Positions 1-56,295 of a stretch of DNA of 64,000 nt are shown in pieces (position 1 is the first letter of the stretch; each line of letters begins with the position of its first letter). Made by a program: the position numbers and the translations under genes. The stretch lies in contig JABUFA010000001.1 of assembly GCA_013314755.1 (NCBI GenBank), positions 23,594-87,593 on the forward strand, given 5' to 3'. The notes under the pieces were generated by a model. It was not told the DNA's origin. It did not search any database and worked only from the letters and a program-made list of their open reading frames with translations. The stretch is from Chthonomonadia bacterium. GTDB taxonomy: Bacteria > Armatimonadota > HRBIN16.

Positions 1-292
1 ACCTTTAGCAACAGCCAGCCGAGCACCATTGTCGCATAGTTCGCGAACGTCATCAACACCAGTCCGCGCGAGTAGGGCAGGCGAAAGGCGATTCGCAACG
101 TGAGCGACTCCACCGCGCCGATGAGGAAGTTGCCGACCGTCGCCTGCAGGAACCCAGCCCACACCAGCGGCGTGCCCATGTTCGCCCACGCTGGAGGTGC
201 GAGCGCGAGTATCAACAGCGCTGACCATCGCCCCAGCCGCCAGCGGTCTGGTGGTGGCATGGTTCTCGTCCTCCTGATATAATAACCTTAAG

Positions 293-1818: not shown

Positions 1819-2546
1819 GCGGGCTGGTCATCCTGCACACCAACGATATGCACAACCGCCTGCGCGAGGAGAGGGCGGAGCGCCTGCGCCAGATTGTAGA
1901 GGAAGAACGCGCTCGATACCCGTGCCTCCTGCTGGACGCCGGCGATGCGGTCGGAGCAGGAAACGTTACCTTCAACCCCGCCGGCGAGCCTATCCTGGAC
2001 CTCATGTCCGACATCGGCTATACCGCGATGACCGTCGGCAACCGCGAGTTTCACCTGACCGAGGTGGGCTTCCATACGAAGCTGAACCGGGCACGCTTTC
2101 CGGTGCTCTGCGCCAACGTACGCCCGCGTAACGGAGCACGCCTGCCCGTCCAGCCCTATCTGCTTCTGGAGGTCGGTGAACGGCGTGTGGGCATAATCGG
2201 CTTGACCGTGCCCATGATTACCGAGCGGATGCTGAGTCGACACGTCAGCGCGTACGTCTTTGACGACCCCGTTCAGCGCGGATGCGAGCTGGCGGAGGAA
2301 CTGCGCCCACAGGTTGACCTTCTAATAGCCCTCACGCATATCGGGCTGAAACGGGACATGGAGCTGGCGCAGGCAACCGACCGAATAGACCTGATTATCG
2401 GGGGGCACAGCCACACCCTGCTGGAGGAACCCCTGCGCGAAGGTAACGCCGTCATCGTGCAGACAGGTGCACATGCGCGTTACGTAGGGCGTGTGCTGGT
2501 GGCTCCTGACAGCATAGAAGGTAGCCTGCTACCCCTTACCGTCTGA
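1816..2546 (+). CDS. Calcineurin-like metallophosphoesterase / 5'-nucleotidase-like protein
   Basis: Motifs LHTNDMHN, DAGD and GNREF typical of UshA-type metallophosphatases. The ORF-track start (1728) overlaps kdsC, so the start is probably the GTG near 1816. Start uncertain. Confidence 0.55.
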
Positions 2547-3959
2547 AGCCAGAACGCCCTTCCATATCCGGGCGGAACGGGCTGGAAGGCTAATCCTCTC
2601 TGTTCGCCCACCACTCACGGCACAGATGGCTCCCGTCCCGACCTCCTCCAGCCTGCTGACGCGGGGCACGGCGCGTTTGCGAAGCGGAATCTCTCCCTGC
2701 CACCCCTTTGCGCCGCCGTTGACGGTCACCATCCACACCTCTTCGCCCTGCCAGCGGGCGTATGCCAGCACATCTCCTTCCGCGTACAGCACATCGGTCT
2801 CGCCCGTCCGCCAGGCAGGGCTGGAATGGCGCAGGGCAATCATGGCGCGTACATGCCGGTACAGACGGCGGTTCCAGCGTCGCCTATCCCACTCGAAACA
2901 TGCCCGGCAATGAGGGTCGGCTTCGCCCGTCATGCCAATCTCGTCGCCGTAGTAGATGCACGGTGCGCCCGGCAGGGTGAACAACAGGGTATATCCCAGC
3001 ATCGCTCGGCGCACATCGCCCTCGCACACGGTCAGCCAGCGTGGGGTATCGTGGCTCCCCAGCAGGTTGATCTGCGCGTAAACCGCCTCGCGCGGATAGC
3101 GGCGCAGGAGGCGCATCAGTCCTGTTGCAAAGGCGGGGGCATCGGCAGAACCCTTCGCTACGAAGTCCATCAGCAGGTCGCGCAGAGGGTAGTTCATCAC
3201 GCCGTCAAACTGGTCGCCTTTTAGCCACCGCCTCGCGTCCTTCCAGATTTCGCCCACAATGTACGCCTCGGGGTTGGCGCTCTTGACCGTCTGCCGAAAC
3301 GCCTGCCAGAAGGTATCATCGTCGATTTCATTGGGCACGTCCAGCCGCCAACCATCCGCGCCCTGCTCTATCCAGTAGCGTGCCACGCTCAGCAGAAACT
3401 GCCGCACCTGTGGGTTGTCGGTGTTGAGCTTGGGCAGGGAACGAATGCCCCACCAGCAGGCATAGTTTGGACGCCTGCGCCCATCGTAGGGGTGGATGGG
3501 AAACTTGCGGATATGAAACCATCCGACGTACGGCGAGTGCGAACCGTTCTCCACAACGTCATGGAAGGGATAAAACCCTCGCCCACAGTGATTGAACACC
3601 CCGTCCAGAATGAAGCGTATCCCGTAAGCGTGCAGGTTGTTGCGCAGATTAACGAAGTCCTCCATCGTGCCCAACTTCGGGTCGATGCGGAAGTAGTCGT
3701 AGGTGTTATAGCGATGGTTGGATGGAGATTGAAAGATAGGGTTCAGGTAGATGGCGGTAATTCCCAGTTCCCGAAGGTAAGACAGATTCTGGCGAATGCC
3801 CTCCAGGTCGCCGCCCATGAAGTTATGTGGAGTAGGCGGAGTTCCCCAGGGCTGAACATTGGCGGGGTCGTTGGAGGGGGCGCCGTTGGCGAAACGGTCA
3901 GGAAAAATCTGATAGAAGACGGCGTGCTTCACCCAGTTGGGCGTGCAAAAGTCATTCAC
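2529..3959 (-). CDS. GH13 alpha-amylase family enzyme (neopullulanase/cyclomaltodextrinase-like)
   Basis: N-terminus WVKHAVFYQIFPDRF, then GGDL.GI...L.YL..LGITAIYLNPIF, DGVFNH and GWRLDV catalytic regions. Probable GTG start at 3959 preceded by GGAGG. Overlaps the HEPN ORF by 8 nt. Confidence 0.8.
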   Translation of the reverse strand: MNDFCTPNWVKHAVFYQIFPDRFANGAPSNDPANVQPWGTPPTPHNFMGGDLEGIRQNLSYLRELGITAIYLNPIFQSPSNHRYNTYDYFRIDPKLGTMEDFVNLRNNLHAYGIRFILDGVFNHCGRGFYPFHDVVENGSHSPYVGWFHIRKFPIHPYDGRRRPNYACWWGIRSLPKLNTDNPQVRQFLLSVARYWIEQGADGWRLDVPNEIDDDTFWQAFRQTVKSANPEAYIVGEIWKDARRWLKGDQFDGVMNYPLRDLLMDFVAKGSADAPAFATGLMRLLRRYPREAVYAQINLLGSHDTPRWLTVCEGDVRRAMLGYTLLFTLPGAPCIYYGDEIGMTGEADPHCRACFEWDRRRWNRRLYRHVRAMIALRHSSPAWRTGETDVLYAEGDVLAYARWQGEEVWMVTVNGGAKGWQGEIPLRKRAVPRVSRLEEVGTGAICAVSGGRTERISLPARSARIWKGVLASDGKG

Positions 3960-4449
3960 CCTGCGCCTCCGTACTCCACTGCTCCAGCATCTGGGCGAAC
4001 TGGTGGAGCTGCGTGCTGACCTTCTCGAACAGGGGGCGTATCCCCTCAACCAGCTGGGTCACTCGCTGTGGGTTCAAACGGAACGAATAGACATTGCGCA
4101 CCACATGACGAAAGCGCAAATATTCGTCCAGTTCCAGCACGGTACTGCTGTCCAGCACGGGTGGGCGCACCCCAGGCACGGAGATGCCCATCTGCTCCAG
4201 CAGGTCGCGGTGCCATCGTTCCCCGTCGGGCGTCGACTGGTCAACAACTCTGGCAATCTGCAGAAAGGCTCGCTCCAGCGCGGTGTAAAAGTCATGCAGG
4301 TTGTGCGCTGCAGCGTCCAGGTACACATCCTCGTCGGGGTGCTGTTCCATCAGCAGGCGCGCACGCTCTGCCCTGTCGACCACTCGTGCGACATCCTGCA
4401 GTTCGGCGCGAATGCGGGCAGCGAGCACGCGGTAGTCATCGTAGCTCAT
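3952..4449 (-). CDS. HEPN-domain protein (HepT-like toxin partner of the adjacent nucleotidyltransferase)
   Basis: 165-aa all-helical ORF with an R-x-R-H-x-x-R-N-x-Y segment resembling the HEPN Rx4-6H region. Its start overlaps the stop of the upstream MNT gene (ATGA-type coupling). Confidence 0.5.
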   Translation of the reverse strand: MSYDDYRVLAARIRAELQDVARVVDRAERARLLMEQHPDEDVYLDAAAHNLHDFYTALERAFLQIARVVDQSTPDGERWHRDLLEQMGISVPGVRPPVLDSSTVLELDEYLRFRHVVRNVYSFRLNPQRVTQLVEGIRPLFEKVSTQLHQFAQMLEQWSTEAQGE

Positions 4450-4808
4450 ACATCCACTCCCTCACGTTCAATTGCGTGCAGAATGCCCGGCTGGCACGTG
4501 TTGACATCCACCAGGTTAACCTCAATCTGGTCGTCCAGATAAGCCACCGCGCTCATCGCCCGCAGTGTATCCTGTGGCTGGATACCCCAGGCGGCAATGT
4601 CCACATCGGAGCGGTCGTCGAACATGCTGGGGCGGAGCAGAGAACCGAATACGACAACGCGCGTCGCCCCGTACTCGCGGCGCAGTAGTTCCGCTGCCTC
4701 ACGGGCGAGTTGCCACGCACGCTGATAACGCGCCTCTCTCTGCTGTTGGGCTTTGCGGCGACGCTGGCGCAGCGTTTGGATATATGGCCGCCACTCCGGT
4801 TTGCTCAT
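4446..4808 (-). CDS. Minimal nucleotidyltransferase (MNT, Pol-beta superfamily; MntA-like antitoxin)
   Basis: GS-x9-DxD nucleotidyltransferase signature VFGSLLRPSMFDDRSDVDIA. Probable ATG at 4808 with a GAGGTGG RBS. Confidence 0.65.
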   Translation of the reverse strand: MSKPEWRPYIQTLRQRRRKAQQQREARYQRAWQLAREAAELLRREYGATRVVVFGSLLRPSMFDDRSDVDIAAWGIQPQDTLRAMSAVAYLDDQIEVNLVDVNTCQPGILHAIEREGVDV

Positions 4809-4880
4809 GAGAACCGCCACCTCGCCTCTATTATAGCACACGGGGCAGGAATCTCTGGAGCGCAGGGGAAGTAATCTTAC

Positions 4881-6383
4881 ATGAAGTGGAAAGACGCACG
4901 GATGGCGGGGGTGCTGTTACACCCCACCTCTCTGCCTGGCGCATTTGGCATCGGGGAACTGGGCGGGGAAGCATACCGCTTCGTGGACTGGCTGGTGCGG
5001 GCAGGACAGAAGGTCTGGCAGGTGCTGCCGCTGGGACCGACTGGCTTTGCAGACTCGCCCTATTCCGCCTTCTCCGCCTTTGCGGGCAATCCCCTGCTCA
5101 TCAGTCTTCAGCGACTGCAGGACGAAGGCTTGCTGACGTGGGACGATTTTGTTGATTACCCATTCCTTCCCGAAGACAGGGTAGATTACGGCGCGGTTAT
5201 CCCTGCGAAGATGGGCGTCCTGCGCCTCGCCTACGAGCGGTGGAAGTCGCAGGGCGACGAAGAGGCGAAACGAGGGCTGGAACACTTCCGAGAACAACAT
5301 ACCTTCTGGCTGGAAGACTTCGCGCTGTTCATGGCGCTGAAGGAGGCATACGGGGGCAGAGCGTGGACCGAATGGGATAGAGACCTTGCCCACCGCAATC
5401 CTGATGCCCTGAACCGCGCCCGAAGGGAGCTGGCGGACGAGGTGCAGTTTCATCGCTTTGTGCAGTACTGCTTTGCCAGGCAGTGGTCCGACCTCAAACG
5501 CTACGCCAACGCGCAGGGTGTGTTGATTATGGGCGATATGCCCATCTTCGTGGCGCACGATAGCACGGATGTGTGGGCGAAACCGGAGATGTTCTATCTG
5601 GATGAGGACGGCAATCCGACCTTCGTTGCCGGCGTCCCGCCAGACTACTTCAGCCCCACCGGTCAGCGATGGGGAAATCCCGTGTATCGGTGGGAGGTGA
5701 TGAAGGAGCAGGGTTACCGGTGGTGGATAGAGCGTTTTCGGTGGACTCTGCAGATGATGGACATCGTGCGCGTCGACCATTTTCGTGGCTTCTCTGCCTA
5801 CTGGCAGGTCCCCGCCTCCGAGCCAACCGCAGTGAAGGGAAGGTGGGTGAAGGTGCCGGGCAGGGAGCTGTTCCGCACTCTGCAAAGGGAACTTGGCGAA
5901 CTGCCCATCGTGGCAGAGGACCTGGGCACCATCACGCCCGACGTCACGCGCCTGCGCAAGGGGCTGGGCTTTCCGGGTATGCGGGTTCTGCAATTCGCCT
6001 TTGACGGCGACCCGAATAACCTCTACCTGCCCTACAACTACGAGCCGGACACTGTGGTGTACACCGGCACCCACGACAACGACACGCTGGTCGGCTGGTT
6101 CAACGGGTTGAGCGAGGAGGAGAAGCGGCGTGTCTACGACTACGTCGGGCGTGAGGACATCAGCGTTCACTGGGAGATGATTCGGCTGGCTTACGCATCG
6201 GTGGCGCGATTAGCCATCGTGCCCCTGCAGGATTGGCTGGGACTGGGCAGTGGGGCACGCATGAACCAGCCGGGGCGCGAAGCGGGCAACTGGCAGTGGC
6301 GCTGTCGAAGAGAACATCTGAATGAAGGACTGGCGCAAGCCATCGCGAAAATGTGTGCTGTTTATGGACGAGACAGGTATTGA
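4881..6383 (+). CDS. malQ: 4-alpha-glucanotransferase (amylomaltase, GH77)
   Basis: 500 aa. N-terminus AGVLLHPTSLPG...GIGELG and internal GH77 motifs (DMPIFVAHDSTDVW, VYTGTHDNDT) match MalQ. Confidence 0.9.
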   Translation: MKWKDARMAGVLLHPTSLPGAFGIGELGGEAYRFVDWLVRAGQKVWQVLPLGPTGFADSPYSAFSAFAGNPLLISLQRLQDEGLLTWDDFVDYPFLPEDRVDYGAVIPAKMGVLRLAYERWKSQGDEEAKRGLEHFREQHTFWLEDFALFMALKEAYGGRAWTEWDRDLAHRNPDALNRARRELADEVQFHRFVQYCFARQWSDLKRYANAQGVLIMGDMPIFVAHDSTDVWAKPEMFYLDEDGNPTFVAGVPPDYFSPTGQRWGNPVYRWEVMKEQGYRWWIERFRWTLQMMDIVRVDHFRGFSAYWQVPASEPTAVKGRWVKVPGRELFRTLQRELGELPIVAEDLGTITPDVTRLRKGLGFPGMRVLQFAFDGDPNNLYLPYNYEPDTVVYTGTHDNDTLVGWFNGLSEEEKRRVYDYVGREDISVHWEMIRLAYASVARLAIVPLQDWLGLGSGARMNQPGREAGNWQWRCRREHLNEGLAQAIAKMCAVYGRDRY

Positions 6384-26629: not shown

Positions 26630-26830
26630 GGTTTTTGAACGACGGCTCGGCGGGAGCCTCGCCCTTCAGGGATGAAGAACCCCTCTCCCGACCTCTCCCC
26701 GACGCGGGGAGAGGTGAATCTCCCCTTCCCTCGCAGGGAATGGGCTGGGGGATAGGTCCCGTCCTTGAACCCCTCTCCCGACCTCTCCCCGACGCGGGGA
26801 GAGGTGATGCGCCCTGCGAGTTAGACTTCC
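26630..26830. repeat. Mosaic REP-like hairpin repeat cluster (two identical 41-bp units at 26677-26717 and 26767-26807, each containing palindrome CCTCTCCCCgacgcGGGGAGAGG)
   Basis: Direct read. Same units recur at 49.9-50.05 kb and 56.37-56.47 kb. Also contains CCTTCCCTcgcAGGGAAtGG, which is shared with 52.05 kb. Confidence 0.85.
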
Positions 26831-52050: not shown

Positions 52051-52121
52051 CTCTCCTTCCCTCGCAGGGAAGGGGCTGGGGGTTAGGTTCAAACGGCTCG
52101 GCAGGAGCCTTGCCCTCCATC
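52051..52121. repeat. REP-like repeat copy (CCTTCCCTcgcAGGGAAGG + GGCTCGGCAGGAGCCTTGCCCTCC modules)
   Basis: Modules shared with 26.64-26.76 kb and 49.72 kb, in a different order. Confidence 0.8.
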
Positions 52122-56265: not shown

Positions 56266-56295
56266 ATTATACCACTTGATATTACTATTATCAAG
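56266..56295 (-). promoter_or_regulatory. Consensus sigma70-type promoter of clpB (TTGATA-17-TATAAT) overlapped by HAIR-like inverted repeat CTTGATA-N7-TATCAAG (candidate HspR operator)
   Basis: Read directly: -10 at 56266-56271, -35 at 56289-56294, 17-bp spacer. The palindrome 56275-56295 differs from the HAIR consensus CTTGAGT-N7-ACTCAAG at 2 positions per half-site. Confidence 0.6.

Follow-up and report, generated by a model that had tools for sequence, protein, structure and literature searches.

Why a gene pair of the HEPN/MNT toxin-antitoxin (TA) kind should lie directly upstream of a gene for a glucan-degrading enzyme, and even overlap it, is the question raised by a locus on the Chthonomonadia bacterium contig JABUFA010000001.1. 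The stretch analyzed here (the window) comprises 64,000 nucleotides, and near one end of it a minimal nucleotidyltransferase (MNT) gene, a HEPN gene, and a gene for a GH13 enzyme follow each other on the minus strand, divergent from malQ. A preliminary description of the sequence had proposed either that a TA module had been acquired inside a starch-degradation operon, or that the pair had been co-opted to modulate glucan-utilization genes. Our analysis makes it fairly probable that the pair is a variant type VII-like TA module which has become fixed upstream of the GH13 gene, and that this gene is passively dependent on the module. The genes of the locus, with their positions in the window, are:

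4446 to 4841, minus strand: MNT open reading frame (ORF) in its longest form, from the ORF list and sequence reading
4446 to 4808, minus strand: MNT, an MntA-like antitoxin candidate of 120 aa, with the start revised to ATG 4808
3952 to 4449, minus strand: HEPN-fold protein of Pfam family PF20797 (HepT-like_2), 165 aa
2529 to 3959, minus strand: GH13 enzyme, maltodextrin glucosidase/cyclomaltodextrinase-like (Pfam Alpha-amylase, 1e-75, and Neopullulanase-like_C)
4881 to 6383, plus strand: malQ, a GH77 4-alpha-glucanotransferase and the divergent neighbour (Pfam GH77, 3e-189; NCBIfam, 758 bits)

The arrangement of these genes was as described previously, including the GS…DxD motif of MNT and the divergent orientation of malQ. 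The letters ATGA at 4449 to 4446 combine the MNT stop codon with the HEPN start codon, and the HEPN stop codon TGA (3954 to 3952) lies beyond the GTG start codon of GH13 (3959 to 3957), which gives an 8-nt overlap between HEPN and GH13. The three minus-strand genes have zero intergenic space and should therefore share one transcript, unless there is a promoter inside the HEPN gene. The transcription unit is limited to MNT, HEPN, and GH13, and thus the term starch-degradation operon was overstated.

The HEPN protein matched PF20797 with 124.1 bits (cut-off 27, E = 3.4e-36) over profile positions 1–109 of 110. It gave no other match in Pfam and none in NCBIfam, PADLOC returned nothing meaningful for it, and the Pfam profiles PF01934, PF08780, and PF05168 did not match it at E ≤ 1. 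A profile search had been expected to reveal a DUF86/DUF1814-type HepT, and this expectation was not borne out. There were 464 homologues at E ≤ 1e-3, with PF20797 present in 120 of the 120 listed, and the family comprises approximately 4,000 clusters at 50% identity. A database record of the identical protein exists, annotated as hypothetical and assigned to a ‘Chthonomonadetes bacterium’ metagenome-assembled genome (MAG). The MNT protein matched Pfam NTP_transf_2 (21.4 bits, cut-off 21) and the PADLOC candidate system PDC-S09 (E 2.4e-7), and reached 26.0 bits with Polbeta (cut-off 26.9), so that the proposed identity of the two genes as an MNT and HEPN pair was supported. Both ORFs are genuine genes and not chance ORFs, because of the PF20797 score of 124 bits, the 464 homologues, and a ratio of non-synonymous to synonymous substitution rates (dN/dS) of approximately 0.12.

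The pairing is a property of the whole family. A scan of one genome per species yielded 346 loci, and the best 80 of these 346 were examined, with neighbours analyzed by tblastn with the window proteins and by a Pfam census. An MNT homologue ended at the HEPN start in all 78 informative loci, the other two being cut by a contig end, and 77 of the 78 junctions read ATGA, GTGA, or TTGA (a 4-nt NTGA overlap). The informative loci span Chloroflexota, Bacillota, Cyanobacteria, and others, and the pairing was thus without exception, whereas homologues never paired with MNT genes would have refuted the preliminary description. Outside Armatimonadota, the 87 neighbour proteins fell into 119 Pfam families, none of which occurred in more than five, and GH13 was found within 6 kb in none of the loci L008–L080. 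Since the flanking genes are unrelated, the pair is an autonomous module. No homologues were found in phage genomes, and plasmids gave only five weak matches, on cyanobacterial and alphaproteobacterial megaplasmids.

Two of the loci showed further features. In Crocosphaera sp. XPORK-15E (L080, 3513–6046), malQ lies approximately 175 nt upstream of the pair on the same strand; this is the sole glucan-gene neighbour among the 73 non-Armatimonadota loci and possibly a coincidence. On an Anaerolineales contig (L019), a pair of the PF20797 type is separated by 2.7 kb from a canonical DUF86 HepT/MntA pair with the motifs RNILVHHY and GSX10DXD (the two pairs occupy 380–1230 and 3920–4545), so that a single genome contains both classes.

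The AlphaFold2 model of the HEPN protein, built from 33 homologues, was confident (predicted local distance difference test, pLDDT, 92) and displayed the four-helix HEPN fold of HepT. The motifs of the two proteins are:

4087 to 4110, minus strand: HEPN motif R114-H115-V-V-R118-N119-V-Y121, the counterpart of RX4HXY (codons CGT CAT GTG GTG CGC AAT GTC TAT)
4599 to 4646, minus strand: MNT catalytic signature G55-S56-X11-D68-V-D70, from sequence reading

The HEPN motif is positioned at the end of the third long helix. The Asn at position 119 is taken as the counterpart of the catalytic His, because family members with RHVVRHxY or RHVLVHRY reproduce RX4HXY exactly. Among 181 distinct close homologues, position 119 was Asn in 89%, His in 9%, and Ser in three sequences, and His115 and Tyr121 were invariant. 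In 149 diverse representatives of the 50%-identity clusters, conservation was 97% for R114, H115, and Y121, 94% for R118, and 100% for E59 and R95; Y55 was present in 144 of 146, W79 in 142 of 148, and H80 in 139 of 148. Position 119 toggles even among orthologues under purifying selection. The PF20797 family evidently has no need of the canonical His, and the polar residues that it conserves instead are more numerous; among them, R114-H115-x-x-R118, E59, and R95 resemble an active site more than a scaffold. The Rx4-6H pair that the preliminary description wanted to see in an alignment was therefore found in part: R114 is conserved, whereas Asn119 stands in place of the His in the window protein and Asn does so in the majority of the family. 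Absence of this pair had been named as grounds for doubt; formally half of it is absent, while R114 and Y121 are conserved and an invariant His follows the Arg. We also considered whether Asn119 marks an inactivation peculiar to this lineage and connected with the neighbouring amylase gene, and rejected this, as Asn is the majority state of the family. An hhalign comparison of the PF20797 family profile with one canonical HepT (from L019) had a probability of 0.3% and gave no usable alignment.

Positions 112 (4114–4116) and 119 (4093–4095) of HEPN covary in the close homologues, uncorrected for phylogeny; the counts were 149 for R112/N119, 11 for G112/H119, 8 for G112/N119, and 6 for R112/H119, and the two residues are on the same helix face, two turns apart. 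Single-chain MNT-HEPN fusions of the PF20797 family also occur (P0271, P0284, P0309, P0338, P0361, and P0387; 283–336 aa), in which both GS..DxD and R-H-x-x-R-[NH]-x-Y are intact. Recent work has described a counterpart in the canonical class, the fused FhepTA proteins (PMC13000451).

In MNT, the third acidic residue downstream of the catalytic signature is D101. The family pattern FGSL..SDxD..WG..NLxD (G55, S56, D68, D70, and D101) was at least 95% conserved in 79 homologues, and the spacer was X11 in 77 of the 79, which differs from the literal GSX10DXD spacing. A search of the MNT sequence against all PDB chains gave marginal matches only. Residues 1–36 of MNT (4701–4808) form a long basic N-terminal helical extension that reads ...TLRQRRRKAQQQREARYQRAW...; canonical MntA proteins of 96 aa are devoid of it, and it could be a nucleic-acid-binding or dimerization element.

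The block of malQ and MNT-HEPN-GH13 with both overlaps was found only in nine related loci (L001–L007, L081, and L161), which are Armatimonadota-type MAGs or metagenome contigs with HEPN proteins 63–95% identical to that of the window. Outside the four-gene block, the genes of these loci differ or are rearranged. Across the nine loci, dN/dS was 0.12 for MNT, 0.12 for HEPN, 0.08 for GH13, and 0.09 for MalQ (dS was mostly above 1), and there were no frameshifts or truncations in the nine orthologues. The low dN/dS values indicate that MNT and HEPN are under purifying selection and hence functional. The Armatimonadota HEPN proteins constitute a tight group of 165 aa, with identity falling from 66% to 58% at the next matches, and the pairwise distances of HEPN and MalQ correlated (Spearman 0.69). 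Because of this correlation and the tightness of the group, the simplest history appears to be that a mobile pair entered the space between malQ and GH13 once and was then passed on vertically. A search seeded with GH13 returned 61 loci (at least 1 kb of upstream sequence, at most 54% identity) without the pair, and in several of these GH13 was beside malQ. The proposed acquisition of a module inside an operon fits these pair-less GH13 loci, the pair-less adjacency of GH13 and malQ, and the unrelated contexts of the pair elsewhere.

The signals that may govern expression of the unit are:

4809 to 4880: divergent intergenic region of 72 bp between MNT (ATG 4808) and malQ (ATG 4881), from sequence reading and the nine-locus alignment
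4830 to 4838, minus strand: TGCTATAAT, a putative extended -10 promoter element for the MNT-HEPN-GH13 unit, from the alignment of nine loci
3966 to 3970, minus strand: GGAGG, the Shine-Dalgarno sequence for GH13 inside HEPN codons 158–160, from sequence reading

The MNT ORF had been drawn to 4841. Such an ORF exists, but the start is almost certainly ATG 4808 (120 aa) rather than GTG 4841, because the promoter box lies inside the longer ORF, ATG 4808 has a Shine-Dalgarno sequence (GAGGTGG) in front of it, and in one relative, gene calls made independently give a 120-aa MNT. The box, as T(G/A)TGCTATAAT, is a perfect extended -10 element in the MNT direction and identical in nine of nine syntenic loci, and we infer that it is a promoter; read on the opposite strand it is TATTAT, a possible -10 element of malQ. 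Of the sequence between malQ and MNT, only a TCCTGC block and T(G/A)TGCTATAAT have escaped divergence across the nine loci. In L003, L004, and L006, repeat elements are inserted between the box and the MNT start, and since the box still adjoins malQ in these loci, the findings are compatible with a shared back-to-back malQ/MNT promoter region older than the module. A sigma-70 consensus scan of 2200–5200 found no minus-strand promoter, but its -35 requirement misses an extended -10 box.

At the other end of HEPN, synonymous-codon identity was 0.72–0.73 in the last approximately 20 codons as compared with 0.56 overall, which fits an embedded ribosome-binding site and start of GH13. The GH13 start varies among the orthologues, with HEPN overlaps from 8 to approximately 23 nt and a gap in none. 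A hairpin scan showed only a chance-level hairpin within the HEPN gene, and neither an Rfam match nor a conserved RNA structure was found in the whole window.

For the variant TA module, we propose the following course of events. The PF20797 gene and its dedicated MNT gene would have been inserted once, in the ancestor of a thermophilic Armatimonadota group of hot springs, separating the GH13 start from the divergent malQ/GH13 promoter region, and inherited vertically since. Transcription would begin a few nt downstream of the observed box at 4838 to 4830, if the box functions as predicted. MNT would be translated first and, given the overlap that is observed, HEPN would probably follow by termination-reinitiation and never be made without MNT. 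By analogy with type VII systems, we argue that MNT may control HEPN through nucleotidylation, because the MNT-first coupling is strict, the MNT active site is intact, and the Tyr is invariant. In analogy to HepT/MntA, MNT would use ATP to AMPylate Tyr121 beside the active-site helix of HEPN, thereby silencing it, whereas unmodified HEPN dimers would act on RNA via R114, H115, and R118 together with E59, R95, Y55, W79, and H80. That this variant catalytic set works without the canonical His (Asn119 here) is presumed, and it is the least secure step. GH13, which has no space for a promoter of its own, would be read from the same mRNA, its Shine-Dalgarno sequence and GTG start codon being embedded in the final codons of HEPN. 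As a consequence of this observed arrangement, GH13 expression would depend passively on the module promoter and on the flux of ribosomes through HEPN.

A number of observations weigh against the view of a type VII-like module. The weak point is the assumption that HEPN is an RNase. Of the RX4HXY motif, the Arg and the Tyr are present but the canonical catalytic His is Asn119, and in Shewanella HepT, mutation of the R or the H abolishes toxicity (PMC4621449). In the 149 diverse representatives, position 119 was N in 70%, H in 16%, and S in 10%, and the syntenic orthologue in L006 has His. The correspondence between N119 and the catalytic His is drawn from the motif pattern and from the helix position in the model. 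The HEPN protein and its family profile gave chance matches only when searched against all PDB chains, and hhalign of the family profile with a 24-sequence DUF86 alignment had a probability of 0.4%, both profiles being of low diversity. The MNT protein scored 30.7 bits against NCBIfam NF047752 (MntA_antitoxin), under the cut-off of 60. We found no toxicity, RNase, or AMPylation data on any PF20797 member in the searchable literature. Long vertical retention at a fixed site is atypical of mobile TA modules, and we infer the co-transcription of GH13 with the pair from the gene overlap alone.

The possibility exists that the pair has been domesticated in this lineage to control glucan catabolism, HEPN binding or cleaving GH13/malQ transcripts and AMPylation by MNT linking ATP status to maltodextrin/glycogen breakdown. 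Such a role would be in line with the conservation of the four-gene block and both overlaps in nine genomes despite rearranged outer flanks, with purifying selection that acts on MNT and HEPN as strongly as on the neighbouring genes, with the absence of the canonical His, and with the position of malQ directly upstream of the Crocosphaera pair (approximately 3% chance, by a rough estimate). There are also precedents, as MtlR-family proteins, which are inactive HEPN proteins, control the mannitol operon (PMC3710099) and Shewanella MntA binds its own promoter (PMC4621449), a region which is here shared with malQ. However, the features of the pair, including Asn119, are family-wide and occur in at least 70 loci with unrelated neighbours, the glucan-linked copies are unspecialized, one syntenic orthologue has His119, and the window holds no conserved RNA structure or Rfam element. 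Passive fixation suffices as an explanation, GH13 having lost independent expression signals. Since the long conservation of the block in one lineage is the only positive evidence for the co-option envisaged earlier, we regard it as distinctly unlikely. A particular form of it, in which the pair is no longer a selfish TA module but an ATP-sensing post-transcriptional switch, appears quite improbable; with plentiful ATP, Tyr121 of the His-less HEPN would be AMPylated, and at low ATP, unmodified HEPN would bind or cleave the shared or the divergent malQ mRNA. If such a switch did exist, the chemistry of PF20797 would dispense with the canonical Rx4-6H histidine.

It is also conceivable, though unlikely, that MNT and HEPN are the two subunits of an enzyme that nucleotidylates a third substrate, HEPN being the substrate-binding subunit, as in kanamycin nucleotidyltransferase, and no toxin. 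The strict conservation of the MNT active site, the lack of conservation of the canonical HEPN His, and the natural MNT-HEPN fusions would agree with this, and fused HEPN domains have been proposed to be non-catalytic (PMC3710099). A mere binding subunit, on the other hand, would not be expected to keep the AMPylation-site Tyr in 97% of the representatives and a near-invariant Arg and basic/His cluster; the MNT-first order with a 4-nt overlap is a TA signature, and the scattered, context-free distribution suits a selfish or defence module. That the pair is a decaying remnant, its toxin inactivated by the change of His to Asn and kept only for the promoter and translation signals of GH13, is very improbable. 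The Asn at the catalytic position and the GH13 signals embedded at the HEPN 3' end are what such a remnant might show, but dN/dS was 0.12 for both genes across saturated synonymous divergence, all family-invariant residues are retained, Asn119 is the family-wide majority state and no local loss, and none of the nine orthologues has a frameshift or truncation. The dN/dS values in particular largely refute a pseudogenized remnant, and this reading was discarded.

Mechanistic work on HEPN/MNT pairs has so far been confined to the DUF86 class with RX4HXY. The PF20797 proteins are strictly coupled to MNT, keep the AMPylation-site Tyr and the Arg, accept Asn or Ser as well as His where the ‘essential’ His would be, and have extra invariant residues of their own; they bear on the question of whether there are HEPN RNases with another catalytic set or MNT-paired HEPN proteins that are no nucleases. 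Pfam has an entry for PF20797, but we found no paper on the family in the searchable literature. The local arrangement is a clear natural illustration of how a mobile module becomes fixed; a housekeeping GH13 gene would have come to depend on the module promoter and on translational coupling, a passive ‘addiction’ without post-segregational killing. The module is real but fairly ordinary, and its embedding in the operon is a tidy evolutionary example and no surprise.

The surroundings of the module showed some additional features. The GH13 protein lacks a signal peptide, its best NCBIfam matches are under the equivalog cut-offs, and it looks like a cytoplasmic maltodextrin glucosidase or cyclomaltodextrinase. 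Its gene and a convergent metallophosphoesterase-like gene overlap tail-to-tail by 18 nt (2529–2546); no terminator-like hairpin was found at 2529–2546, and the overlap leaves no space for an intergenic terminator. The sequence TGNTATAAT occurs in three copies in the 64-kb window as compared with 0.47 expected, the two further exact boxes being at 275–283 (plus strand) and 56266–56274 (minus strand); the former ends 10 nt before the ATG (293) of a KpsF-like gene and would make a nearly leaderless mRNA. In L006 (4830–5650), approximately 750 bp of short repeats separate the promoter box from the MNT start, with the units TGTCATGCTGAGCGCCAGCGAAGCATCT, GAGATTCTTCGCTTCGCTCAGAATGACA (the inverted partner of TGTCATGCTGAGCGCCAGCGAAGCATCT), and GAGGGCGAGGCTCC-N5-GAGCC. 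The third unit is a small hairpin element, which is present also in the leaders of L003 and L004 and in the window at 26653–26666 and 52104–52117 (two matches vs. 0.05 expected). This element looks like a REP/MITE-like (repetitive extragenic palindrome/miniature inverted-repeat transposable element) family of these Armatimonadota.

When the module is compared with known systems, several can be set apart. Las1-type HEPN nucleases (R-H-x-h-T-H) keep the distal His, are eukaryotic, and work with Grc3 without MNT pairing. MtlR/YggD resembles the window HEPN in being a HEPN-fold protein encoded with sugar-utilization genes, and MtlR shows by precedent that a HEPN protein can be domesticated as a regulator that does not bind DNA (PMC3710099). 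Unlike the window HEPN, MtlR has no MNT partner; its link to mannitol genes is family-wide, whereas that of PF20797 to GH13/malQ is confined to one lineage, PF20797 as a whole being free of any metabolic context, and a sequence relationship between the window HEPN and MtlR/YggD was not detected. The HEPN proteins of class II HEPN/MNT pairs (TTHA0636, HI0073/HI0074) belong to PF05168, which the window HEPN does not match; in comparison with them, the window protein keeps the Arg and the RX4-X-Y frame, with only the His replaced.

The closest comparison is that with HepT/MntA class I, for which we used the type VII criteria of Yao et al. 2020 (PMC7641770), with Shewanella oneidensis SO_3166/SO_3165 (PDB 5yep) and the Aphanizomenon HEPN/MNT pair (PDB 7ae2) as references. 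In the canonical HepT motif RX4HXY, the Tyr is polyadenylylated by MntA (PMC7641770), and the MNT-first gene order is typical (PMC3710099). The window HEPN differs from this class in belonging to PF20797 and not to PF01934 or PF08780, with no detectable DUF86 sequence similarity; in having Asn in place of the RX4H His, this Asn being preceded by an invariant Arg and the motif Arg followed by an invariant His; and in an insert of approximately 30 residues between helices 2 and 3 that bears the invariant W79-H80 and R95. The MNT differs in its X11 rather than X10 spacer, in an N-terminal helical extension of approximately 50 residues, and in scoring under the NCBIfam MntA cut-off. As in class I, on the other hand, MNT precedes HEPN and the two genes overlap, MNT has the GS...DxD signature and the third acidic residue, and HEPN keeps the Arg and Tyr of RX4HXY where its third long helix ends. 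Thus, the module falls outside the literal class I definition with respect to RX4HXY, GSX10DXD, and the curated models, but its fold, its gene order, and its target Tyr are those of this class.

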